From contig JACQZN010000082.1 in NCBI GenBank assembly GCA_016213845.1, positions 32,431-96,430 of the forward strand: DNA of 64,000 nt, read 5' to 3'. A program made the position numbers and the translations under genes. Positions 5,301 to 45,481 of the stretch are shown here, piece by piece. The stretch is from Candidatus Wallbacteria bacterium (lineage in GTDB: Bacteria > Muiribacteriota > UBA6191 > JACPRK01). Position 1 is the first letter of the stretch; the number at the start of each line of letters is the position of its first letter. The notes under the pieces are model-generated. The model had not been told where the DNA came from. It did not search any database and saw nothing but the letters and a program-made list of their open reading frames with translations.

Positions 5301-5976
5301 CACGCGCGATCTGGATGAGGTAACGGTCGTGGAGAGCGCTCAGGCAGCGCTCCAGGCCGCCGTGGCGGCCGGCAAGCTCCAGGTGCCGAGCGGCTACTAC
5401 TGGGAGTGGGGCGGACAGTTCGAGAACCAGCAGCGTGCGATGGCCCGGATGCGCATTCTGGTGCCGACCTGCCTGGTGATCATGTTCACGATGCTCTGGA
5501 CCGGGTTCCGGCGGTGGTGGATAGCGCCCATCATATACTTCGGCGTGCTGGTGAGCGCCTCTGGCGGGTTCGTCATGCTGGCGCTCTGGGGAGCCAACCT
5601 TTCCGTGGCGGTCTGGGTTGGATTCCTGGTGCTGTTCGGCGTCGTGGATGACGACGGGGTGGTCATCGCCACCTACCTCGAGGATGTCTTCGATGGCCGC
5701 GAGTTCGATTCGGTGGCCGACATCCGCGAGGCGGTCCTGGAGGCTGGGCTGAAGCGCATCCGGCCCTGCCTGATGACCACGGCGACGACGATCTTCGGCT
5801 TGCTGCCGGTCTTCTGGACCAGCGGGCGCGGCAGCGACGTCATGCAGCCAATGGCGATCCCGTCCGTTGGCGGGATGACCATCCAGCTGATGACGCTCTT
5901 CATCGTTCCGTGCCTCTTCTGCGCCGTCGAGGAGTGGAGGTGGAAGCGGGTTTACACCGGGCGCGCCGCGCGCTAA
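2365..5976 (+). CDS. Heavy-metal efflux RND transporter, CusA/CzcA family (1203 aa, with a roughly 150-aa insertion)
   Basis: HME-RND hallmarks are present: a 12-TM architecture, two large periplasmic loops, and the conserved AIAIGDVADMGIIMTENI segment (TM4 region). It is longer than typical CusA (about 1040 aa). An extra hydrophobic/Arg-rich segment lies near aa 500-650. Confidence 0.9.
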   Translation: MVNAIVRACLRNPVLVLLVMAATFAAGYKSILETPVDAIPDIGEKQVIVYADWPGRSPQDVDDQVTFPLTTSLTGTPGVKTVRSMSGFGFSMVFVIFQDQTDYYWARSRVLERLNVAQQRLPQGVVPVLGPDATALGQVYWYTVEGEGFDLAELRSIQDWYVRYQLNSVEGVSEVASVGGHVKQYQVDVHPDKMRAHRVTLPEIYEAIRRSNIDVGAKVIEKNGVEFFIRGVGFVKSVADLENVVLRQSKGTPLTVRNVATVTLGPDFRRGALDKGGVEAVGGVVLMRYGENPLRVVERVKAKIGQIEAGLPKKTLAGGRVSNVRIVPFYDRTDIVVETIDTLREALTEEAIVASLVILVFLLHLRSTLATLVTLPLSVALCFILMRAFGVDSNIMSLAGLAIAIGDVADMGIIMTENIYRRVAAAERGRSHFETVYEGASEVAGAILTAVSNTLVSFIPVFFLEEQEGKLFRPLAFTKTFAIGASVVLAVTVVPVMCYLLFVPVAWRARTVWLGGGVSGLASGAAILSVLRVFYPHLAAGSAGISLAVGVMVCICVVRMARERFMPLEENAVSRGVVGFYAPALRWILAHKVRFMAAPCLVLLVGLTVWLGVGTVFYPVEWCVNGLAGRTVLELGKLRWQEVGEGGGSRYRLLLRSQAAAEQSAELAAGLRVVREGRVLPGLGREFMPPLDEGSFLYMPSLLPQAGLSVAVEVNAKQDLAIASVPEVQSVVGKLGRVESALDPAPIGMFESIIDLKPQWQWRRVKVERFFSDWPRPIRRALGWFWPEERVLSKNELLAELQAKTAIPGVLPTFLQPIQTRLVMLQTGFRAMMGVKIFGSDLREIERLGLAMAEVLRHVPGVTDIVADRIVGKPYIQLEIEREKIARYGVNIGDVQDVIEIAVGGLNLTESVEGRERYPIRVRYLRDFREDVAELEKILVPTSSGAHIPLAQLVTIRTVTGPQEIKGERGLLVGYVTMNTRDLDEVTVVESAQAALQAAVAAGKLQVPSGYYWEWGGQFENQQRAMARMRILVPTCLVIMFTMLWTGFRRWWIAPIIYFGVLVSASGGFVMLALWGANLSVAVWVGFLVLFGVVDDDGVVIATYLEDVFDGREFDSVADIREAVLEAGLKRIRPCLMTTATTIFGLLPVFWTSGRGSDVMQPMAIPSVGGMTIQLMTLFIVPCLFCAVEEWRWKRVYTGRAAR

Positions 5977-6029
5977 GGGAGCTGCAGAGAGCGGGGACCA
6001 GAGCCCGCCTCAGGAGGAGGAAGAGAACC

Positions 6030-6548
6030 GTGGACAGAAGACTGCGTCTGCTGGCGTTTTCGGGAGCCATCGCGCTTGTGCTGCCCGCTGTTGCAGCGGC
6101 CTGGACGCCCAGCAGCTACTTCTACGGCGCGCGCCGGACCGCCTCGTCCGGCGGCTTCAGCTACAGCACCTACCAGGACGGTTTCAGCACGGGCGGGGAC
6201 TGCGACCCGCAGCCCGCGTACGTGGAAACCAGCTCGGACGCGGGCGAGGAGGACACGCGCACCTTCGCCACCGTGCGGCACGTCCGGAAGGTGATCCCGC
6301 GGCAGCGCGTGAACTACGAGCACGTCACGCACAACCTCAATCGCGTTCACCACGTCGTGCACGACGTCAACCAGGACGTCTACATCAAGAACGTACGGGT
6401 CCACCACAACGTGACCCGGGACCAGACGGTCCATCACTACCGCCACCACACCAACTACATCGAACAGGACGAGGATGTGAACGTGTACCACAACGAGACT
6501 CTGCCCGAGCAAGTCGAAAGCGACTGCGAGCCGGGGGCGGGCGACTGA
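6030..6548 (+). CDS. Secreted histidine-rich protein (putative periplasmic metal-binding protein)
   Basis: GTG start with a GGAGGAGG RBS 10 nt upstream. The signal peptide is RRLRLLAFSGAIALVLPAVAAAW. The C-terminal 60 aa carry 13 His in HxVxH(D/N)V-like repeats (HVTHNLNRVHHVVHDVNQDV...HHYRHHTNY). The gene lies immediately 3' of the RND pump and is stop/start coupled to the next gene. Confidence 0.6.
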   Translation: MDRRLRLLAFSGAIALVLPAVAAAWTPSSYFYGARRTASSGGFSYSTYQDGFSTGGDCDPQPAYVETSSDAGEEDTRTFATVRHVRKVIPRQRVNYEHVTHNLNRVHHVVHDVNQDVYIKNVRVHHNVTRDQTVHHYRHHTNYIEQDEDVNVYHNETLPEQVESDCEPGAGD

Positions 6549-7300
6549 TGACGCGCCCGAGGATTCGGCTACTGACGACGCTGCTCGCGGCGGGCATCGC
6601 CGCTGGCCACGCATTCGGCGGTGAGGCACCCCAGGATCGGCCTCAGCTCTTCCGGCAGCTCCAGGAGATGGCCGCCCGTCGTCCGGAGTACTCCAAGCAG
6701 ACGGGCGAGCGGTTGCTCTCCCTGGTGACGCCTCTCTGGGACAACCCGGACTACCGCCATCGGGTGGCCCATGTGCTGAACGCCAACCAGGGCCATCTCG
6801 ACGCGATCATGAACCGCGTGTTCCTGGAAGAGGAGCGCGCGGCCGGAGTCGACCTGGCCAATTTCGCGCAGGTCGATCCGAAGCTCTATCGGGGTGGTCA
6901 GCCGAGCGAGACCGGCATCCGTAAGCTCGCCCAGCTCGGGATCAAGACCGTCGTCAACCTTCGCCTGGAGGACAACTCGGAGGCGCCGCTGGTCAAGGCA
7001 GCCGGTATGGAGTACGTCCACTTGCCCGTGCCCGACACGGATGCGCCCTCCTATGGTCAGGTGAACGAGTTTCTCGGCCTGATGCACTCCGCCGCAAGCG
7101 GCAAGGTCTACGTTCACTGCGCCGCCGGAGCCCACCGGACCGGAACGATGGTCGCCCTCTGGAGAATCGAGAGCGGCTGGACCGCCGAAAAAGCGCTGGC
7201 CGAAGCGCGTAAGTACGGCTTCCAGGAAGAAGTGCTTGCCGTTGATCGACAGGCCGCGCTCATCCGGGGCTTCGTGCGCAGGCGCCCGCCGGTGGAGTAG
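6548..7300 (+). CDS. Tyrosine-phosphatase-family protein (CX5R P-loop), secreted
   Basis: The start overlaps the upstream stop (TGATG). A signal peptide is present, and the active-site motif VHCAAGAHRTG (HCxxGxxRT) lies in the C-terminal half. Confidence 0.75.
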   Translation: MTRPRIRLLTTLLAAGIAAGHAFGGEAPQDRPQLFRQLQEMAARRPEYSKQTGERLLSLVTPLWDNPDYRHRVAHVLNANQGHLDAIMNRVFLEEERAAGVDLANFAQVDPKLYRGGQPSETGIRKLAQLGIKTVVNLRLEDNSEAPLVKAAGMEYVHLPVPDTDAPSYGQVNEFLGLMHSAASGKVYVHCAAGAHRTGTMVALWRIESGWTAEKALAEARKYGFQEEVLAVDRQAALIRGFVRRRPPVE

Positions 7301-7302
7301 GC

Positions 7303-7447
7303 GGGAAGGTAGAAGGTGGAAGGTGGAAGGAAGTAGCCAGTAGACAGTCGACAGTAGGGAGGCGCGTCGACGACTCCCGTGGCTACACTCCTGCCCCAGC
7401 CCCAGCCCCAGCCCTTGCCCTAGCCCTAGCCCTACCTCTACCCCCCC
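7303..7447. repeat. Intergenic composite low-complexity repeats (GGAAGGTGGAAGG, GTAGCCAGTAGACAGT, CCCCAGCCCCAGCCC/TAGCCCTAGCCC) between convergent genes
   Basis: Direct reading of the sequence. The same short modules recur at 19051-19086, 22246-22460, 46551-46885, 55922-56010 and 59828-59860. Confidence 0.8.
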
Positions 7448-7509
7448 CCGGGGGAGGCCCCCCTCCCGGACCCCTCGAAGCTGCGGCCTGCAGCCTGGCA
7501 GCCTACGGC

Positions 7510-8499
7510 CTAGAGCCTCCCCCCTACGGCCCGCTCCACGGCTTCCTGGAGCGCGCCGATTGCGAGGTCGACCTTGTAGCCATTCCGCTCCAAGTGGCGG
7601 GCGGCGGCGAGCTCGGCACGGGCGGCGGACTCGAGGCGGGCGGGGGTGAGCTTGCGGCCCTGGAGTGCCTCCTCGGCGACGCGGGCTCGCCAGGGCGCAC
7701 CGGCGACTCCGCCCAGCGCGAGGCGCACGTGACGCAGCATGCCCCGATCCATGACGCACGCCGCGGCGGCGCTGGCCAGTGCGAAGGAGAAGGCGGCGCG
7801 GTCGGCGACCTTGACGTAGGCGCTGCGCGTTCCCGGGCGGGGCGAGGCGATCCTGACTTCGGTGACCAGCTCATCGGACCTGAGCACGGTGTCTCTGCCG
7901 GCATCCGATTCGTGCGGTGCTAGGAATTGCGCCAGGGGCACCAGCCGGCTGCCGCTGGCGCTGACGAGCTTGACGCGAGTGTCGAAGACGCTCAGGGCGA
8001 CCGCAGGGTCGGAGGGATGCACCGCGAGGCAGCTCGTCCGTTCAGCGCCGAGGATGGCCAGGCCGGAAGACTCCCCGTGACGCGCGGGGCACTGCGTTCC
8101 ACCCGACTTCCAGCAGTCGAAGCCCGACCGCAGGTAGAGGCAGCGTGGCCGCTGGCAGAGATTGCCGCCCAGGGTTGCGCGGTTGCGGATCTGGGGTGTC
8201 CCGACGGCCGCTGCGGCCTGGGTCAGCGCGGCGAACGGCTGGAGTGGCCGGCACTGTGGAGAGAGCTCCGAGAGCTGGGTCGTGGCGCCGATGGCGACGC
8301 CGGACCTGCTGCTCCGAACGCCGCGAAGGCGCTTCAAACTCTTGAGATCGATGATCACGCCGGGGTCGGAAAGCGACGTCCGGATCAGGTTCAGGAGCTC
8401 TGTGCCCCCGCCCAGGGCCGCCGCCTTTCCCTCGGAGCCCCAGAACATGGCCAGGGCCTGGGTCAGACTCTCAGGAGTCAGGAGCTTGAAGGGCTTCAT
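7510..8499 (-). CDS. Molybdenum hydroxylase FAD-binding (medium) subunit, CoxM/XdhB-like
   Basis: The true start is MKPFKLL at 8499. Its ATG overlaps the upstream stop (ATGA). An FAD-binding PCMH-type domain is present (LGGGTELLNLIRTS, ATLGGNLCQRPRC). The long in-frame 5' extension in the ORF track is non-coding. Confidence 0.8.
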   Translation of the reverse strand: MKPFKLLTPESLTQALAMFWGSEGKAAALGGGTELLNLIRTSLSDPGVIIDLKSLKRLRGVRSSRSGVAIGATTQLSELSPQCRPLQPFAALTQAAAAVGTPQIRNRATLGGNLCQRPRCLYLRSGFDCWKSGGTQCPARHGESSGLAILGAERTSCLAVHPSDPAVALSVFDTRVKLVSASGSRLVPLAQFLAPHESDAGRDTVLRSDELVTEVRIASPRPGTRSAYVKVADRAAFSFALASAAAACVMDRGMLRHVRLALGGVAGAPWRARVAEEALQGRKLTPARLESAARAELAAARHLERNGYKVDLAIGALQEAVERAVGGRL

Positions 8500-10817
8500 G
8501 GCTCTGCGCTGAGCGCCGCCAGCAGGCGGGCCGGTGTGATCGGTGCCGTTCGCAGCCGTCTGCCCGTCGCGTTCGCGACGGCGTTGGCGATGGCCGCGGC
8601 GACCGGGATGATCGGGGGCTCGCCGCTGCCTTTGGCGCCGATGTTGTTGGCCGGGTAGGGAGGTGCTGCGTCGATCACCTCGATCTCGGGCGGGGAGTCG
8701 AGGACCGTCGGGATCTTGTAGTCGAGGAGGCCGGCGTTGAGCTGGCGACCGGTGCCCGGGTCGCGGGTGCGTTGCTCGAGCAGCGCATAGCCGATGCCCT
8801 GGAGGACGCCGCCCTGGATCTGGCTCGACCAGGTGGCCGGGTTGAGGACTCTCCCGCAGTCGTGGGCCGAAACGAAGCGCTTCACGCGTACCGTGCCGAA
8901 CCGGCAGTCGACCTCGACCTGCGCGAACTGGGCAGAGAAGCTGGCGAGGACCACGCCGTCGGGATTGGGCCCCCGCTGGGACGTGCCCACGATCATCCTC
9001 GCCGGAAGGCTTGCTGCGATCGAGGCGACGGCCACGCTCTTTCCCGTGACTGCATGACGCACCTTGCCGCGCATGACGAGAAGCGATGACGCGGGCGCCC
9101 CGAGAATGGGACTCGCCGCATCGAGGAGCTGGCGTTTCACCTCTGCGGCCGCGAGGCGAACCGCAGGCCCTGTGGAGGCGACGGTCAGGCTGCCGAAGCT
9201 GGGCAGGCAATAGGGAGTCGTGCGCGTGTCGCCGTTGGCGACGAGCACCGCCGAGACCGCGACACCGAGCTCCTCGGCTGCGATCTGCGTCATGACGGTT
9301 CGCGTGCCGGTGCCGAGGTCGCAGGCGCCCGTGAGCACGACGACGCTGCCGTCCTCGTGGAGCACGATCTGGGCGACGGCGGGCGGACCGCCGCCGGCGC
9401 CCCAGGTGGCGATGGCCACGCCCAGGCCGCTGCGGAATCGGCCGGTCTTGGTCCGGGGCGGCTTCCGGCTGTCCCAGCCGATGGCCTTAGCCCCGAGCCG
9501 CAGGCAGGAGGCGAGCCCGTTGCTGGCATAGGGCAGGCCGGAGTCCGGGTCGTTGGCGCTCAGATTGGCGAGCCTGAGCCGGACGGGGTCGAGCCCGAGC
9601 TCGTCGGCGGCCTCGTCCACGAGCTGTTCGAGCGCGAAGGCGCCCTGCACGTGGCCGGGCGCTCGGAACGCGCTGGGGGGCGGCGAGCTGGTGAGGATGG
9701 CGTAGTTCTCGGTGCGGACGTTTGCGCAGGAGTAGAAGTCCTGCACCGGGCCGACGCAGCTTCCGAAGTAGTGTCCCTCGAGGGCGGAACCCACGGGGTT
9801 GACCGCGCGCGACGTGAGCGCCACGATGCGGCCTCGCCTGGTCAGTCCTATGGCCAACTGCTGGCGTGAGGCTGGCCTGTAAGCACCCGCTTCGAAGTCC
9901 TCCCGTCGTGAGAGCACCATACGGACCGGCCGGCCCGATCGGCGCGCCAGGAGTGCGGCCAGCAGCGTGTAACGGTCCGCCGAGTTCTTGCTTCCGAACC
10001 CGCCCCCCATGAACGGGCAGAGGACGCGCACCCGGGACGCCGGCAGCCCGAGCGCCTCGCAGAGGGCCGATCGGACGAAAAAGACCCCTTGAGTCGATTC
10101 CCAGACGGTCAGTCCGTCCCCGTCCCACGCGGCGACGGCGCCGTGAGTCTCCAGGCAGGCGTGCTGGGCGGCCGGGGTCTCGTAGATCCGCTCGAGCGTG
10201 ACCTCCGCTGCTTCGAGCGCTGCCGGTGCATCGCCCCGCTCGTAAACCTCGGGCTTTCCGGGCGTCTGCGGGCCAAACCCGCCTCCCAGGACGTTGCCTC
10301 CGGGCTGGAGCGCGGGCGCCCCTGGAGCCATCGCATCCTCCGGCTCCAGAACGTGAGGCAGCGGCTCCCAGCGCACCCGGATGAGCGAGAGCGCTTCCTC
10401 GGCCGTCTCCTCGTCCGTGGCGGCCAGCGCGGCGATCTCCTCGCCCGCATACGATGCCTCTGCCGAGAGCACCTCCCGCCCGCCGAGCCGGACTCCGCGC
10501 ACGTCCCCGGGGCCGAGCACGGCCAGCACGCCGGGCAGCTTGGCCGCCGCCGACAGTCCCAGCTCCGCCACGCGGGCCCTGGCGTGCGGGCTGCGGAGCA
10601 CCTTGCCGTACAGCATCCCGGGAAGCTGCACGTCATGCGTGTAACGCGCAGCGCCTGTCACCTTGTCGGGGCCGTCCACGCGTCGCAGCGACTTGCCCAC
10701 GAGGGTCGTCTTGCCCCACGGTGGGAGCTGTCGTTCCATCTGCGCCCGGACCTTGACCTTGCGCCCCTCGATCTCGAGCTCGGTCTCGACGGTTTTCTCG
10801 GCGCAGTCGTCGCTCAT
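8496..10817 (-). CDS. Molybdopterin-binding (large) subunit of a xanthine-dehydrogenase-family Mo hydroxylase
   Basis: 773 aa, with GGGFGSK and FRAPGHVQGAFALE active-site-loop motifs typical of XDH/aldehyde-oxidoreductase-family large subunits. It is not the AYxCSFR signature of form-I CO dehydrogenase. It is flanked by small and medium subunit genes with overlapping stop/starts. Confidence 0.85.
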   Translation of the reverse strand: MSDDCAEKTVETELEIEGRKVKVRAQMERQLPPWGKTTLVGKSLRRVDGPDKVTGAARYTHDVQLPGMLYGKVLRSPHARARVAELGLSAAAKLPGVLAVLGPGDVRGVRLGGREVLSAEASYAGEEIAALAATDEETAEEALSLIRVRWEPLPHVLEPEDAMAPGAPALQPGGNVLGGGFGPQTPGKPEVYERGDAPAALEAAEVTLERIYETPAAQHACLETHGAVAAWDGDGLTVWESTQGVFFVRSALCEALGLPASRVRVLCPFMGGGFGSKNSADRYTLLAALLARRSGRPVRMVLSRREDFEAGAYRPASRQQLAIGLTRRGRIVALTSRAVNPVGSALEGHYFGSCVGPVQDFYSCANVRTENYAILTSSPPPSAFRAPGHVQGAFALEQLVDEAADELGLDPVRLRLANLSANDPDSGLPYASNGLASCLRLGAKAIGWDSRKPPRTKTGRFRSGLGVAIATWGAGGGPPAVAQIVLHEDGSVVVLTGACDLGTGTRTVMTQIAAEELGVAVSAVLVANGDTRTTPYCLPSFGSLTVASTGPAVRLAAAEVKRQLLDAASPILGAPASSLLVMRGKVRHAVTGKSVAVASIAASLPARMIVGTSQRGPNPDGVVLASFSAQFAQVEVDCRFGTVRVKRFVSAHDCGRVLNPATWSSQIQGGVLQGIGYALLEQRTRDPGTGRQLNAGLLDYKIPTVLDSPPEIEVIDAAPPYPANNIGAKGSGEPPIIPVAAAIANAVANATGRRLRTAPITPARLLAALSAEP

Positions 10818-11341
10818 CTTTCAGGCTCCCGCCTGGCCGCCGCCGCGCGCAGCACGGCCGTCGCAATCTTCACGTAGCAGCCGCACCGGCAGAGGTTGCC
10901 GGAAAGCGCCCGCCGGACGCACTCCCGGTCCGGGGACGGCTCGGCGTCGAGCAGCGCCTTGGCCGCCAGGATCTGCCCCGGGATGCAGAAGCCGCACTGC
11001 AGTGCGTCATCGGCCAGAAAGGCCTCCTGGAGGGGATCGAGCCGCTCCGGCGTGCCCAGTCCCTCGATCGTCATGACGCGCCTTCCCGAGGTCTCTGCGG
11101 CGAGTACGCAGCAGGCGTAGACGGCCACTCCGTCGAGCAGAACCGTGCATGCGCCGCACTCCCCGGCGTTGCATCCTTCCTTCGCGCCCGTCAGTCCGGC
11201 CGACTTCCGGAGGAACTCGAGCAGGGTCCAGTGGTCCGGAACCGACGCGCGCGTGACACGCCCGTTGAGCTCGAGCTCGATCTGGGTGACGTGCCGCGCC
11301 GCCGGTGACTTCGCCGATCTCGTGGCCGCGCGCCTCGCCAT
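10814..11341 (-). CDS. (2Fe-2S)-binding small subunit of a Mo hydroxylase (CoxS-like)
   Basis: Plant-type ferredoxin cluster CNAGECGACTV and a second cluster CGFCIPG..CRCGCY. An alternative GTG start about 17 codons downstream is possible. Confidence 0.85.
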   Translation of the reverse strand: MARRAATRSAKSPAARHVTQIELELNGRVTRASVPDHWTLLEFLRKSAGLTGAKEGCNAGECGACTVLLDGVAVYACCVLAAETSGRRVMTIEGLGTPERLDPLQEAFLADDALQCGFCIPGQILAAKALLDAEPSPDRECVRRALSGNLCRCGCYVKIATAVLRAAAARREPER

Positions 11342-11351
11342 CGTCCGCCGC

Positions 11352-12416
11352 CTAGAGGAGCTTGGCCAGCAGATCCTGGTCGTTGATCCGCTTGGCCACG
11401 TCTTCGATGTCGATCATCCCTTGCGCCAGGAACTTGCGGAGCTCTTGCTCCAGGCTCTGCATTCCGTACTTCAAGCCGGTCTGGATGATGGTCGGGATCT
11501 GGTGCAGCTTCTCCTCGCGAATCAGGGAGCGGATGGCCGGGGTGCACACCATGATCTCCTGCACGGCCACTCGTCCGGGCTTGTCCTTGCGCGGGATGAG
11601 CAGCTGGGCCACGACGCCCTGGAGGCTGTCGGCCAGCATCGCTCGGATCTGGCCCTTCTCGCCGGCCGGGAACACATCGATGATGCGCGTCACGGTCTTG
11701 GGCGCGCTGTTGGTGTGCAACGTCCCGAACACGAGGTGGCCGGTCTCGGCGGCCGTCAGCGCCAGGCTGATCGTCTCCATGTCCCGCATCTCGCCCACCA
11801 GGATGCAGTCGGGGTCTTCGCGCAGCGCTGACTTGAGGGCGTTGGCAAAGCTGAGCGTGCTGTTGCCGACCTCACGCTGGTTGATGAGGCTCTGGCGACT
11901 CGGGTGGACGAACTCGATGGGGTCCTCCACCGTGATGATGTGGCGCTTGTGGTTGCGGTTGATGTCGTCGATCATTGCCGCCAGCGTCGTCGACTTGCCG
12001 CTTCCGGTGGGACCCGTCACGACGACCAGGCCCTTCTCCAGGGCGGCCAGCTTGCGGCAGGCTTCCGGGAGTCCGAGCTGCTCGAAGGTCTTGATCTCGG
12101 TGGGAATGACGCGGAAGACTGCCGCCAGGCCGTTGCGGTTCCAGAAGATGTTGCCGCGGAAACGGGCGACGTTGGGGATCTCCAGGGCGAAGTCGAGCTC
12201 CTTCTTCGTCTCGAGGGTCTTGGCCCGCTCGGGCGTGAGGGCCTGCACGAGGATGCCCTTGACCGCCTCGGCCGACTGCGGGTCCGGGCCGGCCATCTCG
12301 ACGGGGGTCAGGTGGCCGTTGAGCCGTGTGACCATGATCGCCCCGGAGGAGATGTGGAGGTCGGAGGAGCCGGAGGTCTTGGTGTAGGTGAGGAGGTCTG
12401 CGAGTTTCAGCGTCAC
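11352..12416 (-). CDS. pilT: Type IV pilus retraction ATPase PilT
   Basis: Walker A GPTGSGKST, Asp box, Walker B/His box (GEMRD..TLHTNSA) and a PilT-type N-terminus (SDLHISSGAIMV). Only 10 bp separate it from the coxS-like start. Confidence 0.9.
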   Translation of the reverse strand: MTLKLADLLTYTKTSGSSDLHISSGAIMVTRLNGHLTPVEMAGPDPQSAEAVKGILVQALTPERAKTLETKKELDFALEIPNVARFRGNIFWNRNGLAAVFRVIPTEIKTFEQLGLPEACRKLAALEKGLVVVTGPTGSGKSTTLAAMIDDINRNHKRHIITVEDPIEFVHPSRQSLINQREVGNSTLSFANALKSALREDPDCILVGEMRDMETISLALTAAETGHLVFGTLHTNSAPKTVTRIIDVFPAGEKGQIRAMLADSLQGVVAQLLIPRKDKPGRVAVQEIMVCTPAIRSLIREEKLHQIPTIIQTGLKYGMQSLEQELRKFLAQGMIDIEDVAKRINDQDLLAKLL

Positions 12417-14008
12417 GACAGCTCCTCCAGGCCGATCCGGCCCGAGGTGACCCAGGCGATCTCGGCGCAGTCACGGTCGGCCAGGCGTACCGCATCGGCG
12501 AGGCGACCCTCACGCAACGCCGCGCGGGCGCGGGGCGTGATGACGAGGCGTTCGGCCAGGAGCAGGCGGCCGGCGTGGCCCGTCCCCTTGCAGGCATCGC
12601 ATCCGGGCGCCTCGAACCAGCCGCCTTCGGCGAGTGCCGAGGCGTGGAGCTCCTCGAGATGTCCGAGAAGCTGGCGCTTCTCGGTGGTATCGACCGGGGT
12701 CCGGCAGCTCTCACAAAGCTGGGCCACGGCGCGCACGGCGACGGCTGTCCCGGCGGTTGCGGCGACCAGGGCCCGGCGGCTCTCGCCGGTCGAGAACATC
12801 TGCGCCACAACGTCCGCGGCCCGCCGATAGCCGAGCTCGATCAGGATGCACGGGCCTGCCACCGATGCTTCGAGTGCCGCGCTCAGATCGTCGGGGTTGG
12901 GCGCCAGGTGGATCACGTCCGGCGCCAACGCCAGCGCGCTCGCCAGCCGATCGGCAAAGGGGCGATTCGAGGCCGGCAGCTCCAGCACGCCCGTGGCGGA
13001 AGCGGTCTGCAGCGTGACGACCTTCAGGCCAGCTGCGGCTGCGGCACCGAGCAACGCGGTGCCGAGCCCGGCGCACTCGGGAATGCCGCGCGGTGCTCCG
13101 AGACCGACGAGCTGTCCGGCGCGACCCAGGTCCGCGACGATGCGCGCCGCCAGCGCTGCGTCGCCCAGGATCTCTTCGGCCGAACGGGAGCCCGCGCCGC
13201 TGGCGACCGGGTCGATCCGGATGACGGCAGATCCGCCGCCGGCCGTCGGGGTGTAGGAGAAGGTCATCTCGACGTCCTTGCCCCCGAGCTGCGAGCGGAC
13301 GCCCGGCTTCAGGTACTCGCCCAGGTCGAACGGATCGACGCCTGCGAGCACGCGCAGCCGGGTGAACACGGAGAGCGCCATCATCGCCGGGAGGGTGGCC
13401 TTGGAGAGCAAGCGGCTTCCGACGCGGAAGCGGACGCGCAGTCCCTCCGGGTCGGAGTCGAAATGAATCTGGCGCGCGCCCTCGGCTGCGGCGCCCAGAA
13501 GCTGTTGGTAGACCAGCGCGATTCCGGTGCCGTCCTCTACCGCCACGGCCGTCGCCTCGGCCTCCGCGGATTGCCGTCCAAGGATGGCTCGCAGGATCTC
13601 ACTCACGTTTCCCTTGGCAGCGATGGAGACGTTCAGTGGCTTGGACGAGACCCTTCCGAGCATCTCGTGGGCCGCCTGGTCCCAGGGATCGACCATCGCC
13701 ACGCTGAGCTCCTCGGCGTCCTCGAAGAGCGGCACGACGCCGTGCTTGACGAGCGCGCCGCCGGAGAAGCGCCGCGCCAGGTCGCGATCGACCATGTCGG
13801 CGGACAGGTGCAAGTACGGGAGGCCGGTCTCGCCGCTCACGGCGAAGTGGATCTGGTCCTCGGTGATCATTCCGAGGCCGATGACGACTTCGGCGAACTT
13901 CGGGCCCTCGGCACCGCGCTTCTTGGCCTCGTCGAGCTGGTCCTGCGAAAGGAAGCCCCTGGAAAGCAGGAGCGGGGGAAGGTCTGGCCGCGCTGGCAGG
14001 TTCGTCAT
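12413..14008 (-). CDS. GspE/PilB-family protein with degenerate ATPase motifs (probable pseudo-ATPase) and an MshEN/T2SSE_N-like N-domain
   Basis: The N-terminus resembles a GspE_N/MshEN domain (LLLSRGFLSQDQLDEA..EVVIGLGMITEDQIHFA). The C-terminus retains the tetracysteine zinc motif (CESC...CDACKGTG). The expected P-loop position reads GLGAPRGIPECAGLGT, which is not GPTGSGKT. The Asp/His boxes are not recognisable. Confidence 0.65.
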   Translation of the reverse strand: MTNLPARPDLPPLLLSRGFLSQDQLDEAKKRGAEGPKFAEVVIGLGMITEDQIHFAVSGETGLPYLHLSADMVDRDLARRFSGGALVKHGVVPLFEDAEELSVAMVDPWDQAAHEMLGRVSSKPLNVSIAAKGNVSEILRAILGRQSAEAEATAVAVEDGTGIALVYQQLLGAAAEGARQIHFDSDPEGLRVRFRVGSRLLSKATLPAMMALSVFTRLRVLAGVDPFDLGEYLKPGVRSQLGGKDVEMTFSYTPTAGGGSAVIRIDPVASGAGSRSAEEILGDAALAARIVADLGRAGQLVGLGAPRGIPECAGLGTALLGAAAAAGLKVVTLQTASATGVLELPASNRPFADRLASALALAPDVIHLAPNPDDLSAALEASVAGPCILIELGYRRAADVVAQMFSTGESRRALVAATAGTAVAVRAVAQLCESCRTPVDTTEKRQLLGHLEELHASALAEGGWFEAPGCDACKGTGHAGRLLLAERLVITPRARAALREGRLADAVRLADRDCAEIAWVTSGRIGLEELS

Positions 14009-14014
14009 CGCTGG

Positions 14015-14401
14015 TCAGGGTTTCTGCGTCAGGCGGGCGATGTGGCCGAGCAGGGCAGCCTCGTCGGCAGGCTTGTCCATGTAGACGGCGGCGCCCAGGC
14101 CGGCACCGATGTCGCGGAAGGTCTGCTCGTTCTTGGTCGTCAGCATGATGACGGGGATTCCTTTGGTGGAATCGTTGCCCTTCAGGGTCATCAAGGCGGT
14201 GTAGCCGTCCATCTTCGGCATCATCACGTCGAGCAGGATCAGGTCCGGCAATTCCTTCTTGGCCAGATCCACCGCGACGGAACCATCTTCGGCCTCCAGG
14301 ACCTGGAAGCCCGCCGCCGAGAGAAGGTCGGTCATCTGGGTCCGGTAGAGGAGACTGTCGTCAGCGACGAGGATCTTCAGCGTGCGCGCGCCATCGGTCA
14401 T
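14015..14401 (-). CDS. Single-domain response regulator (CheY-like receiver)
   Basis: ILVADDS...LPDLILLDVMMPKMDG...IPVIMLTTK. It is 6 bp upstream of the GspE-like gene. Confidence 0.85.
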   Translation of the reverse strand: MTDGARTLKILVADDSLLYRTQMTDLLSAAGFQVLEAEDGSVAVDLAKKELPDLILLDVMMPKMDGYTALMTLKGNDSTKGIPVIMLTTKNEQTFRDIGAGLGAAVYMDKPADEAALLGHIARLTQKP

Positions 14402-14544
14402 CGGTTTGAAAACCTCCTGGGCCGGCTTGCCACGATTGCCGGCTCGACACTTCGTAGCAGAGCGGCGCAGGCGGCGTCAACCGCGGTACCGACTGTGGGT
14501 GTGTCGGAAGGGCCGAATCGAGGGCAATCTCCTATAATGAAAGA

Positions 14545-15396
14545 GTGGACGGCGACGCGGACGGGCTGCGCGGGGCGTTTGCGGAGGCTGTCGGGTGCCG
14601 CGACGAGGCGATCGACCTGGCTCGCGCTGCGCTCTTGATCGCCCAGCGGGAGTATCGGGGGCTGGACGTCGGTGCCTACATGGCGCGGATTGACGGGATG
14701 GCGGACGCGATCCGGTCCCGGCTGCCCAGAGGTGCGCGCGCGGACCGGATCACCTCCGAGATGAACCGCTACCTCTTCGAAGAGCTGGGCCTCAAGGGCA
14801 ACGCGGCCGACTACTACGATCCGCGCAACAGCTTTCTGAACGACGTGATCGACCGGAAGCTGGGGATTCCCATCACGCTCTGCATTCTCTATATGGAGGT
14901 TGGCCGGAGGCTGGGTGTGCGGCTCGACGGGATCTCGTTTCCGGGCCACTTCCTGGTGAAGCTGCGGCTGCCCGACGGCGATCTCATCCTCGATCCCTAC
15001 CATCGGGGGATGGTGCTGGACGAGGACGCGCTGCAGCGGCAGATCGACGAGGCGCTCAGTCCGCTGCCGCCGGCCGAGGAGCGGGTGCAGAAGTGGCTCG
15101 TCTCGGCCACCAAGCGGGACGTGCTGGCCCGGATGCTGCGCAATCTGAAGGCGATCTACACCAGCGCCAACGACCTGGAGCGCGCGCTGGGCGCCGCCGA
15201 CTGGATACTGGTGGCGACGCCGGATGTGCCCGCTGAAGTCCGCGACCGCGCGACCCTGCACGACCGGCTGCAGCACGGGCCGGCCGCTTTGACGGACTAC
15301 GTGCGTTACCTGAAGCTGGCGCCCGACGCCGACGACACGGACGAAGTCCGGGCGCGCGTGGAGCAGCTGCGCAAGAGCTTCGGCGTGCTGAACTGA
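14545..15396 (+). CDS. SirB1-N/transglutaminase-like family protein (UPF0162)
   Basis: GTG start. Motif block NPLxL..ILYMEVGRRLGVRLDGISFPGHFLVKL..DLILDPYHRG resembles YchA/SirB1-family proteins. Confidence 0.6.
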   Translation: MDGDADGLRGAFAEAVGCRDEAIDLARAALLIAQREYRGLDVGAYMARIDGMADAIRSRLPRGARADRITSEMNRYLFEELGLKGNAADYYDPRNSFLNDVIDRKLGIPITLCILYMEVGRRLGVRLDGISFPGHFLVKLRLPDGDLILDPYHRGMVLDEDALQRQIDEALSPLPPAEERVQKWLVSATKRDVLARMLRNLKAIYTSANDLERALGAADWILVATPDVPAEVRDRATLHDRLQHGPAALTDYVRYLKLAPDADDTDEVRARVEQLRKSFGVLN

Positions 15397-15412
15397 GAGG
15401 AAGAGGGCGGGG

Positions 15413-17830
15413 CTACTTTCGCAGGGGGAGAGTGAAGGCGCCGATGCCTTCGCGGTGGTTGACGATCAGGGCCACGATGCGTTCGGGCAGGACCACGAAG
15501 CGGACGACCTTCGGGACCAGCATCGGGAGTACGACCTTTCCGGCCGGCTCCCAGGAGACCAGGTCGCGAGAGCGGTAGAAAACGACGATGGCGGGGCCGG
15601 CGGGATGGGTGATGTCGAGCGTGACGCCGGCGACGTAGACGGTGCCGCCGGCGATGGCGACGGCGGGCTCCCACTGGAGGTACTTCTCACGGAAGGGGAC
15701 CGCGACCGTTCGGAACGCGGCGCCGTCGTCCTGGCTGACGCAGAGCCGCACGCCGGCGGGCACGGAGTAGGCGACGGCAACGGTGCCGTTGGCGGCGGCG
15801 GCGTCGACGTCACTCTTCATGCCTTCGTCGTAGGCGACGAGGCTTCGAACGGGCGCCCACGGACCCTGATCGGGGTCGAGGGTGTGAGTCCACAGGAGCG
15901 TCTTCCTGTCGTCGTCGTCTTCGAGCTGGGAGAAAGCGAGCAGGCGGCGGCCGCTGTGCAGCAGGATGGCGCAGGTCCGGGAGGCGTGCCGGTGCACGAG
16001 CTGGGTGGAGGCCTTGCCCGAGCGCAGCGTCCTGCGGGCGGAGTCGACGTCGGCCCATCGGATGCTCACGTCGTTGCCAGGTGCCCACGGGCCGAAGGTG
16101 AGCAGATCGAAGCGACCGCCGCCCGCGGGCGCCAGGCCGGGATCGTGGAGCGAGCCGAAGGTTTCGAGGGGCGGGCTCCAGGCTGGCTGGTCCGGCCGCC
16201 GGAAGCGGATTTGCACCGTATCGCCCGCGGGCTTCGCGAGCACCCACGCGACGGCGGCGCTTGTGCCGTCGGCGGCCAGCGCGATTCTGCTGTTCGCGCC
16301 GGGGTCGTCGGGGAGGGTCTGGGGCTCGGTCCAGGTGACGCCGCCGTCTGGGCTCTCGGCCGTACAGATGAGCTTCCTGGTCTCGAGGTCCCTTCGCCAC
16401 GCCGCGTAAATCGTCTCGCCGGCGGCTGCGATGGCACAGGCATTGTCGGGTTTGATCGAATCGACATAGGTGGCCGTGCCTCCTCCGAGGTCGGCGACTC
16501 GCCGGGTCCGGAAGGCGAGATGGGCGCGGCCGCCGGGCCATTCGAGCGCGCCCGTGTACGCGGTGTCGGGCTTCAGTCCCGCGACCATGGCGCTCTTCGC
16601 GTTATCGCTTATGGGGAGGCGGGACCAGGACGGCGTAGAGGAGCCGGAAGGTCCGAAGGATAGGATGAGTTGTTTTGGGATGCCGCCGGCGAGCCAGACG
16701 CGGGCACGGTCGTGGGAGGTCGACACCTGGGCGACCCGCGGGGGAGTGGGCGCCGGCTTCGCCACGGCTGGTGGAGCCTCCGCCGGAGCGGGGGGCGGAG
16801 GCTCCTGGCGGCGAGGCCATGCGGCCGCCGCGGCCAGAACCAGGGCGAGCCCCACGGCCGCGGCAAGCGGGGCGCGCTTTCCGCCGGCAGCAGCTACGAA
16901 GGGCGGCGTCGCGCTCGGGAGCTCCCGCGAGGAGCGCGTCCGAGCGACGGCGCTCTGGAGCTGGCCGCTGCCCCGGCTCACACGCGTGGCCGCGCGCACG
17001 GCTCTCGGAGCCTTCAACGCCTGGGGTGTCAGCGCCGCCAGCTCGGAGGCCAGCTCGTCGGCTGAGGGGCGGCTGGTCGGCTCCGGCGCAAGGCAACGTA
17101 GGACCAGCTGTCCGAGCGCCGGTGGAAGGGGCGAAGTCAGCCGGGCCAGCTCCTGGGAATCGCGGCGCAGCTGGGCCGACACCTCCTCCTGCATGTCGGC
17201 GGCGGCGAACGGGCGATGGCCCAGCAGCAGCTCGAAAAGGATCACGCCCAGCGCGTAGACGTCTGCAGCCGCGGTGGCGGGTTTGCCCCGGAGAACCTCG
17301 GGCGCCATGTAACCCGGAGTGCCGAGCAGGACGCCGGCCGCCGTCTTCAGGGAGCCGCCCTCGAGCTGGGCCTTGGCGAGGCCGAAATCGGCGACTTTCA
17401 CCACGTCCTCGCCGGTCAAGAGCAGGTTCTCGGGCTTGAGGTCCCGGTGGACGATGCCCGCATTGTGGGCGTGCGCCATCGCGGCGGCTGCGGCGCCCAG
17501 CCACGAGGCGGCTTCTCGAGGGGGACGCGCTCCCAGACGCTCCAGACGGTCCCGGATGGAGCCGCCGGTCACCAGTTCGCAGACGAGGTACGGCCGGTCC
17601 TCGGTGAACCCGGCGTCGAAGAGGGCCAGCAGGTTCGGGTGGGAGAGGCCTGCCTGGATGCGGGCTTCACGGAGGAAGCGGACACGGGTCTCCTCGGCGT
17701 CGAAGAGGCCGGGGGCCAGCAGCTTGATCGCCACGGGCCGGGAGAGGCCCGTCTGGACGGCTCGGTAGACGGTGGCCGAGGCCCCGGAAGCCAGTTCGGT
17801 CTCGATTGTGTATCCGGGGATTGTGACCAC
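15413..17830 (-). CDS. Ser/Thr protein kinase with Pro-rich linker, TM segment and extracellular BNR/sialidase-like beta-propeller
   Basis: Hanks kinase motifs (AIKLL, HRDLKPENLLL, DFGLAKA, GTPGYMAPE). A TM helix at LAAAVGLALVLAAAAAW is followed by BNR repeats SPDGGVTW and SQDDGAAF in the C-terminal 400 aa. Confidence 0.8.
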   Translation of the reverse strand: MVTIPGYTIETELASGASATVYRAVQTGLSRPVAIKLLAPGLFDAEETRVRFLREARIQAGLSHPNLLALFDAGFTEDRPYLVCELVTGGSIRDRLERLGARPPREAASWLGAAAAAMAHAHNAGIVHRDLKPENLLLTGEDVVKVADFGLAKAQLEGGSLKTAAGVLLGTPGYMAPEVLRGKPATAAADVYALGVILFELLLGHRPFAAADMQEEVSAQLRRDSQELARLTSPLPPALGQLVLRCLAPEPTSRPSADELASELAALTPQALKAPRAVRAATRVSRGSGQLQSAVARTRSSRELPSATPPFVAAAGGKRAPLAAAVGLALVLAAAAAWPRRQEPPPPAPAEAPPAVAKPAPTPPRVAQVSTSHDRARVWLAGGIPKQLILSFGPSGSSTPSWSRLPISDNAKSAMVAGLKPDTAYTGALEWPGGRAHLAFRTRRVADLGGGTATYVDSIKPDNACAIAAAGETIYAAWRRDLETRKLICTAESPDGGVTWTEPQTLPDDPGANSRIALAADGTSAAVAWVLAKPAGDTVQIRFRRPDQPAWSPPLETFGSLHDPGLAPAGGGRFDLLTFGPWAPGNDVSIRWADVDSARRTLRSGKASTQLVHRHASRTCAILLHSGRRLLAFSQLEDDDDRKTLLWTHTLDPDQGPWAPVRSLVAYDEGMKSDVDAAAANGTVAVAYSVPAGVRLCVSQDDGAAFRTVAVPFREKYLQWEPAVAIAGGTVYVAGVTLDITHPAGPAIVVFYRSRDLVSWEPAGKVVLPMLVPKVVRFVVLPERIVALIVNHREGIGAFTLPLRK

Positions 17831-17894: not shown

Positions 17895-19064
17895 GTGGGG
17901 TTGGAGAAGCGCGACGTGCACCCATCGACGGATGGAGTTGGAAATGCCAGGCCGCGAATCCTGGTAGTGGACGACGATCCCGGCGTCCGGATGGTCCTGC
18001 GCGCTTACCTCGAAAACACCTATGAAGTAGTCGAGGCCGAAGAAGGGCAGCAGGCGCTGGACCTGATGCTGCAGCAATCGATGGACCTGGTGCTGCTGGA
18101 CGTCAAGATGCCGGGCATGTCCGGCTACGACCTGTGCCGGATGCTGAAGGGGCGTACGGCAGAGGAGTTTCTGCCGGTGCTGCTGCTGTCGGCGCTCGAT
18201 CAGCAAGAGAGCCGCAATGAGGGGCTTTCGGCCGGGGCCGACGACTTCCTCTCCAAGCCCGTCGATCGCCGGGAGCTCCTGCTGCGGGTGGCTGCGTTTC
18301 TGAAGATCCGGGAGCAGGCCGGACTCATCCGCAAGCAGCTGGCCGACCTGAAGCGGGTCCAGTATCTCAAGGACTACCTGTTCAAGCTGATCGTGCACGA
18401 CTTGCGGAACCCGCTGGCGAGCGTGGAAGGGTTCCTCAAGTTGCTGAAGGACGAACTGCCGGCCGGCTTCGAGCGGGAGCTGGGGAACTACCTGGATCGG
18501 GCGCTGGAGGGCACCGCGGATCTTTCGGAGATCCTGGAGGGCGTGGCCGAGGTCTACGTACTGGAAGAGGGCAAGAGGGCCCTGGCGCCGGAAGAGGTCC
18601 CGGTCAAGCTGATCCTCAACGAGGCGTCGCAGGCGATGGCCGGGGCCGCCGAACGGGTCGGGGCCGAGATACGGGTGGCGGTGGAAGGCGATCCCGTGTT
18701 GATGGTGGACCGGAAGCTGGCCCGGCGGTGCGTGGAGAACCTGATGGACAACGCGCTCACCTATTCCTGCGCGGATGATGCCGTGCTGGTGTTGGCGCGT
18801 CCCGAGGAGCGGGGGGCGGTGATTGAAGTGCTCGACAGGGGGCCCGGCATACCCGACGAACTGAAGGGATCGCTCTTCGAGAAGTTCGGATCGGTGGAGG
18901 GCTGGATGACCGCATCGAGACGCGGGGTCGGCCTGGGGCTGCACCTGGTGAAGCTGGTTGTGAGCGCGCACAACGGCACGGTCTCGGTGCACGACAGGGA
19001 GGGTGGGGGCAGCATCTTCCGGCTCTGGTTCCCGGGACCGGGCGGGGTTGGGAGTAGTCAGTAG
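17895..19064 (+). CDS. Hybrid response-regulator/histidine kinase (REC-HisKA-HATPase_c)
   Basis: GTG start. Receiver motifs ILVVDDDP..LVLLDVKMPGMSGY are present. The H-box is IVHDLRNPL. The G-boxes are LDRGPGIPDE and GVGLGLHLVK. It is divergent (65 bp) from the Ser/Thr kinase gene. Confidence 0.8.
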   Translation: MGLEKRDVHPSTDGVGNARPRILVVDDDPGVRMVLRAYLENTYEVVEAEEGQQALDLMLQQSMDLVLLDVKMPGMSGYDLCRMLKGRTAEEFLPVLLLSALDQQESRNEGLSAGADDFLSKPVDRRELLLRVAAFLKIREQAGLIRKQLADLKRVQYLKDYLFKLIVHDLRNPLASVEGFLKLLKDELPAGFERELGNYLDRALEGTADLSEILEGVAEVYVLEEGKRALAPEEVPVKLILNEASQAMAGAAERVGAEIRVAVEGDPVLMVDRKLARRCVENLMDNALTYSCADDAVLVLARPEERGAVIEVLDRGPGIPDELKGSLFEKFGSVEGWMTASRRGVGLGLHLVKLVVSAHNGTVSVHDREGGGSIFRLWFPGPGGVGSSQ

Positions 19065-31631: not shown

Positions 31632-32306
31632 ATGGGTGAGCTGATCCGGTTCTCGCGCCCCGATGGCCAGGAGTGCCCGGGGTATCTGGCCACGCCGGCG
31701 GCCGGCGGCGACGCGCCCGGCATCGTCGTGATCCAGGAGTGGTGGGGCCTCAACGACCAGATCCGGGGCGTTGCGGACCGGTTTGCCGCCGCGGGCTATC
31801 GGGCGCTGGTGCCGGATCTCTATCGCGGCCGGGTCGCCGCCACTCCCGACGAGGCCAACCACATGATGAGCGGGCTCGACTGGGGCGCCGCGACGGTGCA
31901 GGACGTCCAGGGCGCCGTGCACCATCTGGGGCGCGGCGGCCGGCGCGTCGCGGTCCTGGGCTTCTGCATGGGCGGGGCGTTGACGCTGCTGGCCGCGGCG
32001 AAGGTCTCGGGGGTCACCGCGGGCGTCTGCTTTTACGGCATCCCGCCCGAGAGCGCCTGCGACTTTGCCTCCATCCGGGTGCCGCTCCTGTTGCACTTCG
32101 CCGAGCACGACGACTGGTGCAACGCCGCGGCCGTGGACCAGCTGGCCGCCCGTCTGACCGCTGGGCGAGTGCCGCACGACCTTCACCGCTACGACGCCCA
32201 GCACGCCTTTTTCAACGAGCAGCGCCCCGAAGTCTACGACGCCGCCACTTCGAAGCTGGCCTGGGACCGCTCGTTGCAGTTCCTCGCAAGAGAGCTGGGT
32301 GCGTGA
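31632..32306 (+). CDS. Dienelactone hydrolase family protein
   Basis: Start MGELIRF with an AAGGAG RBS. Motifs GIVVIQEWWGLNDQI and GFCMGG (nucleophile Cys), plus a C-terminal His. Confidence 0.8.
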   Translation: MGELIRFSRPDGQECPGYLATPAAGGDAPGIVVIQEWWGLNDQIRGVADRFAAAGYRALVPDLYRGRVAATPDEANHMMSGLDWGAATVQDVQGAVHHLGRGGRRVAVLGFCMGGALTLLAAAKVSGVTAGVCFYGIPPESACDFASIRVPLLLHFAEHDDWCNAAAVDQLAARLTAGRVPHDLHRYDAQHAFFNEQRPEVYDAATSKLAWDRSLQFLARELGA

Positions 32307-32358
32307 GCCGCTGCCGGCGGTACCCACCGCCGGCCCGCGGAGAGGAGCCGTGAGAACC

Positions 32359-40281: not shown

Positions 40282-40772
40282 TTGCAGTCCTCCACAGGCG
40301 GCTTGGAGGTGAAGGGGGGCAGCGCTGCCAGGGATCGCCTCGGGTTGGAGACCAGGCGGTCGCAGGTCAGGGAGAGCTCGCGGTCGGGGGCGGTGGAGCG
40401 CCATTTGACGGTGGCCTGCAGCCGGATCAGTCCGCCAACCTCGAGCCGGGCGAGCCGGACCTGGCGGGAGACGTCCCGAGCGGAGACGCCGGCGCCGGCA
40501 ACGCCGCCGAGCGCGGCCTGGATCTCGGGGGCGGCACCTGACAGCGTGAGCTCCTTGGCGTCGCCGAGCAGTGCGTCGAGCCGGGCGTAGCCGAGGGAGC
40601 CGGCGAAGTGCTCGAGAAGGTGCTCGGCTTCGCTCTGGGCGCGGAGCTGGGTCTCGCCCTGTTGACCGCGCCTGCGGGAGAGCGTGTTGAGCCCCAGGAG
40701 CGGCACGATGGCGGCGACGATCAGGACCAGCGCCACGAGGATCTCGGTGAGCGTGAAGGCGCGACGGGTCAT
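40278..40772 (-). CDS. Minor pseudopilin, GspH/I-like
   Basis: MTRRAFTLTEILVALVLIVAAI is a canonical prepilin N-terminal motif (F+1, E+5). It is 164 aa. The ATG overlaps the upstream stop (ATGA). Confidence 0.75.
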   Translation of the reverse strand: MTRRAFTLTEILVALVLIVAAIVPLLGLNTLSRRRGQQGETQLRAQSEAEHLLEHFAGSLGYARLDALLGDAKELTLSGAAPEIQAALGGVAGAGVSARDVSRQVRLARLEVGGLIRLQATVKWRSTAPDRELSLTCDRLVSNPRRSLAALPPFTSKPPVEDCN

Positions 40773-42550: not shown

Positions 42551-42582
42551 GCCGGTATTCTAGCGGAACCTCGCTCGCCGGC

Positions 42583-45351: not shown

Positions 45352-45411
45352 GACCGGCTGTATAGCACACCGACCCAGGCGGTGAGCCGGTCAGCGCGCG
45401 GCGGAAGCATC

Positions 45412-45465: not shown

Positions 45466-45481
45466 GGGATTTCGGGATTTC

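Follow-up and report, generated by a model that had tools for sequence, protein, structure and literature searches.

Direct binding of receiver-only proteins to the pilus motors PilB and PilT is documented, for DrdR of X. campestris (PMC13507683) and for PixG, PixH and PixE with PilB1 of Synechocystis (PMC11181946; bioRxiv 10.1101/2021.06.11.447907). PilU is an accessory retraction ATPase which works only through PilT (PMC6762196, PMC6821130). M. xanthus PilB and the GSPII-B and GSPII-C domains of PilF bind cyclic diguanosine monophosphate (c-di-GMP) through the N-terminal domain (PMC6957770, PMC11731258), while PilF GSPII-A, with only one degenerate half-motif, fails to bind it (PMC11731258). 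How PilB and PilT alternate at the pilus base, and how signalling biases the choice between them, is an open problem. Here we describe a three-gene cassette in a 64,000-nucleotide stretch of a Candidatus Wallbacteria contig (JACQZN010000082.1, positions 32,431 to 96,430; hereafter the window), in which a PilB-like protein, referred to as pseudo-PilB, is encoded between a CheY-like receiver and PilT. The domain order of pseudo-PilB is that of PilB, GspE and PilF (Pfam T2SSE, PF00437), namely an MshEN/GSPII N-domain, an N2 domain, a RecA-like C-domain and a tetracysteine zinc module. Unlike these enzymes, which carry a Walker A motif, an Asp box, a Walker B motif and a His box, pseudo-PilB is without all four. 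Literature searches turned up neither catalytically dead PilB paralogues nor such a cassette, a weak negative given that coverage was incomplete.

A PilB-like protein without ATPase motifs

In Pfam searches pseudo-PilB matched MshEN over residues 62-147 with 57.3 bits (gathering threshold 23.1) and T2SSE over residues 348-501 only with 58.2 bits (gathering threshold 24.9), compared with 174 bits for the neighbouring PilT with the latter model. With respect to the NCBIfam equivalog models, scores of 99.4 bits against a cut-off of 675.65 for PilB (TIGR02538) and 76.9 bits against 630.25 for GspE (TIGR02533) were obtained. Using phmmer, the protein aligned end to end with T. thermophilus PilF (6f8l, 5oiu) and M. 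xanthus PilB (3jc8). In the Walker A region GLGAPRGIPECAGLGT (residues 302-317), GAPRGIPE stood opposite GPTGSGKS/T and the Lys-Ser/Thr pair was absent, on which phmmer and a reference-guided motif table agreed; only G308 and P310 of this region were invariant within the family. At the Asp box LQTA stood opposite EDPVE, at Walker B APDVIHLAPNPD opposite DPDIIMVGEIRD without the Gly-Glu, and at the His box AGPCILIELGY opposite TGHLVLSTLHT without the His. The same four losses were observed in all orthologues. A mis-registered P-loop was considered and rejected, as no GK[ST] was found in any register by phmmer to PDB entries, by MAFFT, by BLOSUM pairwise alignment or from the secondary structure of an AlphaFold2 (AF2) model. 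An earlier note on this DNA, which had read the Walker A as degenerate and the Asp and His boxes as gone, is therefore confirmed by the PilF/PilB alignments and the motif table, with Walker B likewise lost, and the hidden Markov model alignment check which it had proposed revealed no intact P-loop.

The zinc motif, by contrast with the ATPase motifs, was kept (C432-x2-C435 ... C470-x2-C473). It was invariant in the window protein and in three full-length homologues recovered by a word-index protein search: P0001, from a Candidatus Wallbacteria metagenome-assembled genome (MAG) and 95% identical to pseudo-PilB, P0002 (54%) and P0003 (48%). The linker and N2 domain retained the PilB N2 features IH, RVRFR and R217. 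The Pfam MshEN match, the full-length alignments and the four invariant cysteines thus agree with the earlier proposal that a GspE-type N-domain and a CxxC...CxxC zinc module are kept. The AF2 model, built on 150 homologues, had a mean predicted local distance difference test score (pLDDT) of 93.1 and a predicted template modelling score (pTM) of 0.76. Its best PDB matches in Foldseek were PilF (5oiu), GspE (4pht), EpsE (1p9w) and Geobacter PilB (5tsh), with E-values from 1e-24 to 3e-26; for PilF 5oiu the E-value was 3e-26 and the template modelling score on the target 0.72-0.74. The modelled N-domain comprised a four-helix bundle (residues 10-61; helices 10-16, 22-30, 35-44 and 50-61) and an alpha/beta subdomain (62-147), and the P-loop region comprised a strand (300-304), a loop longer than canonical (305-314) and a helix (315-325). 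By descent and by structure pseudo-PilB belongs to the PilB/GspE superfamily. Judged by its sequence, it falls short of a functional PilB/GspE ATPase by every measure tested, both motifs and equivalog scores, and none of the residues required for ATP binding and hydrolysis is left; it is predicted to fold like PilB yet cannot act as an ATPase of known kind or as a motor. It is probably a paralogue of PilB, the ATPase that drives type IV pilus extension, without catalytic activity.

The pseudo-PilB open reading frame (ORF) had a GC content of 0.86 at third codon positions (GC3) versus 0.51 at second positions (GC2). Measured against the 95% identical orthologue, the ratio of nonsynonymous to synonymous substitution rates (dN/dS) was 0.18 for the whole gene, 0.028 for residues 1-150 and approximately 0.21-0.29 for the remaining regions (0.21 for the ATPase core), compared with 0.135 for CoxL and 0.014 for PilT. 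Codon composition and purifying selection together indicate a real gene and a pattern which is not due to chance. The loss of all catalytic motifs and the rapid evolution of the ATPase core might suggest a decaying pseudogene or an annotation artefact, but in each lineage the ORF was intact at 531-538 amino acids and its start (MT..P.RP) was conserved, 48-55% identity was kept across divergent MAGs, the AF2 fold was confident and the operon position was conserved. Decay was ruled out by the dN/dS together with the integrity of the orthologues, none of which was disrupted, and the pseudogene explanation, which the earlier note had named as a possible refutation, is in our judgement extremely improbable.

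Constraint was distributed unevenly along the protein. The window protein was 61-70% identical to P0002 and P0003 in the N-domain and 41-44% identical in the ATPase core, and N-domain identity exceeded core identity in 6/6 family pairs. Among canonical PilB-like pairs of comparable divergence the N-domain exceeded the core in 0/890, the mean identities being 29% and 59%, respectively. Constraint in this family is inverted relative to real PilBs, favoring the N-domain over the core. In the more distant P0009 the zinc cysteines were lost, and in the group of P0053, P0058, P0059 and P0067 the C-terminal zinc region was deleted. The N-domain and N2 are the part that matters, and the ATPase body is an eroding scaffold.

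Conservation of the receiver, pseudo-PilB and PilT genes

An exhaustive HMMER search over 1.84 billion representatives added P0009 (542 aa, approximately 35-38% identical) and two fragments to the three homologues, with scores then falling from 353 to 234 bits. Of the top 148 full-length representatives matched by the family profile, 35 had none of Walker A, Walker B and the His box, and several others were intermediate (e.g. GPSGSGRTT). In a neighbour-joining tree of these 148 the window protein fell within an 18-leaf clade, all members of which were motif-less, with long-branch attraction likely among such degenerate sequences; given this, a single origin of the clade is not relied on. A scan of JGI metagenomes with the family profile added no members to the family, all matches being canonical PilBs at 20-28% identity, and a second word-index protein search with a wider alignment gave nothing new. 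The carriers are Wallbacteria, Planctomycetota, Armatimonadota and unclassified lineages, all uncultured. Their genes are currently annotated as PilB, GspE, TadA or hypothetical, so that motors of pilus or secretion assembly are over-counted in MAG-based inferences of metabolism and motility. Among the PilB-like proteins encountered in these searches, P0014, P0019 and P0022 are of approximately 1000 aa and have two complete tandem N2 and ATPase units with a Walker A in each, an unusual duplicated motor architecture. The MAG of P0003 (L002/L011, GCA_021772705.1) is labelled Candidatus Cloacimonadota and has a contig GC of 62%. This value seems high for Cloacimonadota, and the genome is possibly mis-binned or mislabelled.

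The receiver of the window scored 85.4 bits with Pfam Response_reg, and its residues D14, D15, D58, T88 and K110 were intact and kept in orthologues. Receiver identity was 77-85% at the closer orthologous loci and 59% at L005, with the receiver directly upstream of pseudo-PilB in all. The window PilT scored 454.6 bits with TIGR01420 (cut-off 319.1) and 360 bits to P. aeruginosa PilT (3jvu) versus 253 bits to PilU, and its motifs GPTGSGKST, VEDPIEF, DPDCILVGEMRD, TGHLVFGTLHT and AIRSLIRE were intact. Across the tight-family loci identity was 68-80% for PilT and approximately 37-55% for pseudo-PilB. When orthologous neighbourhoods were compared, as had been advised, the order receiver, pseudo-PilB, PilT was found in all seven tight-family loci as far as the contigs reach. 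These are the window (with L003, a short contig identical to it), L004/L010 and L013 (contig cut), which are two Wallbacteria MAGs, and L001, L012, L002/L011 and L005. Flanking genes differed, with PMT_2 and glutaredoxin upstream of the cassette in L001 and L002.

The junction between pseudo-PilB and PilT ranged from -22 to +5 nt in 10 loci, and the partner PilTs retained all motifs in 8/9 loci. At L009 (1646-2668) the PilT-like partner is itself degenerate (GPSGSGRTT, VSELPD, AGQLVLTALPT), and both members of this pair appear from their motifs to be non-catalytic. The theme was repeated in 7/7 distant dead PilB-like proteins whose neighbourhoods were looked up. The order was receiver, pseudo-PilB, PilT at L027 and L028 (at L028 the last gene is cut by the contig end), kinase, pseudo-PilB, PilT, receiver at L007, with an active PilB and its own kinase and receiver next door, pseudo-PilB, PilT at L009 and L006, and pseudo-PilB, receiver at L026. 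At the seventh, L029 (10001-14385), a receiver is fused to the N-terminus of pseudo-PilB (P0059; Pfam Response_reg, MshEN and T2SSE); this fusion protein is without the zinc region, and its gene precedes those for PilT, a PilU-like ATPase and a second receiver. By the Rosetta-stone argument the fusion indicates a joint function of receiver and pseudo-PilB. Conservation of the three-gene order at all related loci, together with this natural fusion, ties pseudo-PilB functionally to PilT and the receiver.

The L007 locus (4901-15806) lies on a groundwater contig of low GC (40%) with two parallel units side by side, one of GAF-kinase, dead PilB, PilT and receiver and the other of GAF-kinase, receiver and active PilB (with an intact GPTGSGKT); between the units is a receiver-GGDEF gene, and STAS/anti-sigma genes follow them. 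At L029 a pair resembling a cyclic-oligonucleotide-based antiphage signalling system (CBASS), with a DncV-like nucleotidyltransferase and a patatin, was located approximately 8 kb upstream of P0059.

A proposed adaptor and its alternatives

The finding is solid at the level of sequence and reaches far outside the window; with respect to mechanism, we infer that pseudo-PilB is not a motor but a regulatory, non-catalytic, PilB-derived adaptor which links receiver phosphorylation to PilT, and assign this reading a probability of roughly 0.6. The receiver would be phosphorylated by a kinase and would then dock on the strongly conserved N-domain of pseudo-PilB, whose PilB-like surfaces would bind the co-translated PilT or else fill the site at which PilB docks on the pilus platform. 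In this way a two-component system could control retraction of the pilus, or where PilT is localised, with no ATP spent. The PilT-binding and platform-decoy versions of this adaptor are not discriminated. The suggestion of a regulatory pseudo-ATPase partner of PilT in the earlier note is thereby supported in part, by the motif loss, the conserved cassette and the fusion, though not as regards the c-di-GMP role attached to it.

Several observations weigh against the adaptor. Contact of pseudo-PilB with PilT, the receiver or the platform is suggested by gene order and one fusion. In some ordinary clusters of pilus genes (Myxococcus, Geobacter) pilB and pilT are ancestrally adjacent as well, so that part of the linkage could be inherited and not selected. 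No pilin, PilC, PilM-Q or active PilB was found within the 64-kb window, nor any other pilus genes within 10 kb at L029, so that a link to pili hinges on the canonical character of PilT. The members of the family, moreover, all derive from MAGs or metagenomes of uncultured organisms and fall in clusters of 1-6 sequences.

The alternatives differ in what the conserved N-domain and the gene order are taken to mean. If pseudo-PilB were an inert decoy, its hexamer would fill the PilC/PilM docking site and block extension so that PilT wins, a sub-case of the adaptor which predicts binding to the platform rather than to PilT. Retention of the full PilB-like architecture (N1, N2 and C-terminal domain) with the zinc module is consistent with a decoy, as is the homology of the most conserved part, the N-domain, to the GspE N1 that binds GspL in 4pht, and at L007 an active PilB with its own receiver stands beside the pseudo-PilB and PilT pair. 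Deletion of the C-terminal zinc region and decay of the core in the wider clade (P0053/58/59/67) are, however, hard to fit with mimicry of a PilB hexamer, and no platform genes lie nearby; the decoy appears rather unlikely. A c-di-GMP-binding partner of PilT, as the earlier note had suggested, would instead have the MshEN-like N-domain bind the nucleotide and the dead ATPase body relay the signal to PilT. The Pfam MshEN domain is present, a four-helix bundle, which in MshE makes up the binding site, is predicted by AF2, constraint is strongest in the N-domain, the same domain mediates binding in M. xanthus PilB and PilF GSPII-B/C (PMC6957770, PMC11731258), and a PilZ-containing cyclase is encoded near the L012 cassette. 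Against this, the tandem 24-residue motif RLGxx(L/V/I)(L/V/I)xxG(L/V/I)(L/V/I)xxxxLxxxLxxQ with its 5-residue spacer (PMC5013675), searched for as strict and relaxed regular expressions, was matched in either half by 0/6 family members; as the same expression matched tandemly in only 13/150 canonical PilBs, its absence is indicative and not proof. In pseudo-PilB motif I has DLP for RLG and Gly as its final residue, motif II has KFA for RLG and an invariant Glu at the phosphate-/ribose-binding Gln position, and the half-motifs are separated by 4 residues, not 5. The score with the NCBIfam c-di-GMP motif model NF053729 was 25.7, below the cut-off of 38. While pseudo-PilB shares its N-domain family and predicted four-helix bundle with the MshEN receptors (V. 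cholerae MshE, M. xanthus PilB, PilF GSPII-B), both of its half-motifs are without their Arg, Gly and Gln positions, and its N-domain is closer to that of PilF GSPII-A, which has one degenerate half-motif and does not bind (PMC11731258). From these sequences an MshE-type c-di-GMP receptor is not supported, binding in some other mode may occur, and we regard a c-di-GMP relay as improbable.

A functional coupling of the cassette with the Mo-hydroxylase genes that follow PilT in the window, for example in a shared regulon, was also considered. These genes matched Pfam Fer2_2, MoCoBD_1/2 and Ald_Xan_dh_C, with FAD_binding_5 assigned via L004. The six genes (receiver, pseudo-PilB, PilT and CoxS-, CoxL- and CoxM-like) are co-directional on the minus strand with gaps of 6, -4, 10, -4 and -4 nt, no terminator-like site was seen in the 10-nt gap between PilT and CoxS, and the arrangement in L004 is identical. 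Cox genes were found after PilT only in the window, in its identical short contig L003 and in L004, the 95% relative. In L005 PilT is followed by TerC and in L012 by a CobW-like GTPase, and in L002 no CoxS match was found in the 285 nt after PilT. A coupling is thus very unlikely, and the Mo-hydroxylase is a lineage-specific neighbour with no conserved functional tie, outside the conserved cassette. The transcript shared between pilus-motor and Mo-hydroxylase genes which the earlier note had envisaged is likely in the window genome and its 95% relative, because a 10-nt gap leaves no room for a terminator, but does not carry over to other lineages with different downstream genes.

Returning to the adaptor, a more specific form of it may be put forward tentatively. 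The cassette could be a phosphorylation-gated motor-exchange device, in which an inert PilB mimic takes the place of the extension motor on the platform and hands the site to its co-translated PilT, so that a two-component signal switches extension to retraction; as a module it would be old and distributed among various uncultured phyla (Wallbacteria, Planctomycetota, Armatimonadota and others), with the ATPase body eroding toward a pure N-domain adaptor. We consider this conceivable but doubtful.

Genomic neighbourhood and comparison with known systems

The coordinates of the cassette and the adjoining genes are presented in Table 1. As the earlier note had stated, the receiver stop lies 6 nt upstream of the pseudo-PilB start and the PilT stop 10 nt before the CoxS-like ATG at 11341. 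PilT starts with GTG and overlaps the pseudo-PilB stop by 4 nt, and the CoxS-, CoxL- and CoxM-like genes overlap each other by 4 nt. The 6-nt in-frame spacing between receiver and pseudo-PilB was not kept at other loci.

Table 1. Coordinates of the cassette, the parts of pseudo-PilB and the downstream Mo-hydroxylase genes in the window.
Feature	Position	Strand	Basis
Receiver, CheY-like single-domain, 128 aa, first gene of cassette	14015..14401	-	Pfam Response_reg
Pseudo-PilB, 531 aa, PilB/GspE fold without ATPase motifs	12413..14008	-	Motif loss, AF2/Foldseek, dN/dS
Pseudo-PilB N-terminal MshEN/GSPII-like domain, residues 1-147	13568..14008	-	Pfam MshEN, AF2 helices, dN/dS
Pseudo-PilB linker and N2 domain, residues 148-290	13139..13567	-	Alignments, nearly invariant columns
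Pseudo-PilB remnant ATPase core, residues 291-425, fastest-evolving part	12734..13138	-	Alignments, region identities, dN/dS
Pseudo-PilB degenerate Walker A region GLGAPRGIPECAGLGT, residues 302-317	13058..13105	-	Aligned to PilF/PilB GPTGSGKS/T
Pseudo-PilB tetracysteine zinc module C432xxC435 ... C470xxC473	12590..12715	-	Family alignment
PilT, canonical retraction ATPase, 354 aa	11352..12416	-	TIGR01420, motifs, dN/dS
CoxS-like	10814-11341	-	Mo-hydroxylase block 7510..11341; Pfam
CoxL-like	8496-10817	-	Mo-hydroxylase block 7510..11341; Pfam
CoxM-like	7510-8499	-	Mo-hydroxylase block 7510..11341; Pfam

The CoxL-like subunit reads ...GAYRPASRQQ..., and neither of the CO-dehydrogenase signatures, which we take to be AYxCSFR or AYRGAGR, was seen in its translation when read by eye only. 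The operon looks, from this reading, like that of a generic xanthine-dehydrogenase-family Mo-hydroxylase rather than of a CO dehydrogenase. Upstream of the cassette and divergent from it lies a gene for a transglutaminase-like (Transglut_core2) protein with TPR_9 (14545-15396, +), and the 143-nt intergenic region 14402-14544 is likely to be the promoter region for both. At 1-3.5 kb upstream of the cassette are genes for an 805-aa Ser/Thr protein kinase, whose long C-terminal extension has no assigned fold (15413-17830, -), and a divergent receiver-HisKA-HATPase hybrid kinase (17895-19064, +); at L012 a CHASE2 Ser/Thr kinase and an adenylate-cyclase-PilZ protein are encoded upstream of the cassette. 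These kinases and the cyclase may be inputs to the cassette.

No second PilB/PilT paralogue was found in the 64-kb window. A role as a defence-system component was rejected, as PADLOC gave no meaningful match. Elsewhere in the window are a histidine kinase of unusual FHA-GAF-HisKA-HATPase architecture (27574-29301, +), a 1946-aa predicted surface protein with CARDB, PKD-like, PPC and DUF11 domains (32299-38139, +), and a four-gene run (40278-46510, -) which encodes a WD40 beta-propeller (342 aa), a HEAT-repeat protein (922 aa) and two further ORFs of 593 and 164 aa without a Pfam match. These are followed by a MacAB/TolC-type efflux cluster (48315-55921, +) of a 939-aa HlyD-like protein, an ABC ATPase, an FtsX/MacB permease, an OEP protein and a second HlyD-like protein, with a Kup K+ transporter (56213-58126) and a class A penicillin-binding protein (60227-62530) downstream.

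If the proposed role is correct, a dead PilB coupled so firmly to a receiver and to PilT would offer a natural means of studying how the two motors alternate, since it could bind but not work, and PilB/GspE would join the enzyme families that have yielded regulatory pseudoenzymes. As in DrdR, the Pix regulators and P. aeruginosa PilG/PilH, a stand-alone receiver is tied to PilB- or PilT-type proteins in the cassette. In contrast to those systems, the PilB-type partner here is dead, the receiver is directly upstream of it or fused to it, and no chemotaxis-like genes accompany the cassette. PilU, like pseudo-PilB, is a pilus-motor paralogue encoded beside PilT, and L029 has pseudo-PilB, PilT and a PilU-like gene in a row; PilU, however, is an active PilT-type ATPase, whereas pseudo-PilB is an inactive PilB-type protein. 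Non-hydrolysing partners with a P-loop fold that organise or modulate a type IV filament motor are also known, namely TadZ/CpaE of Tad pili and ArlH/FlaH of the archaellum, and TadZ carries a receiver-like N-domain, as does the P0059 fusion. Their folds belong to the MinD/ParA and KaiC/RecA families and not to PilB/GspE, and both still bind ATP; unlike them, pseudo-PilB is without a recognisable phosphate-binding loop. By analogy of function, pseudo-PilB would nonetheless resemble TadZ/CpaE and ArlH/FlaH as a non-hydrolysing partner of a filament motor.

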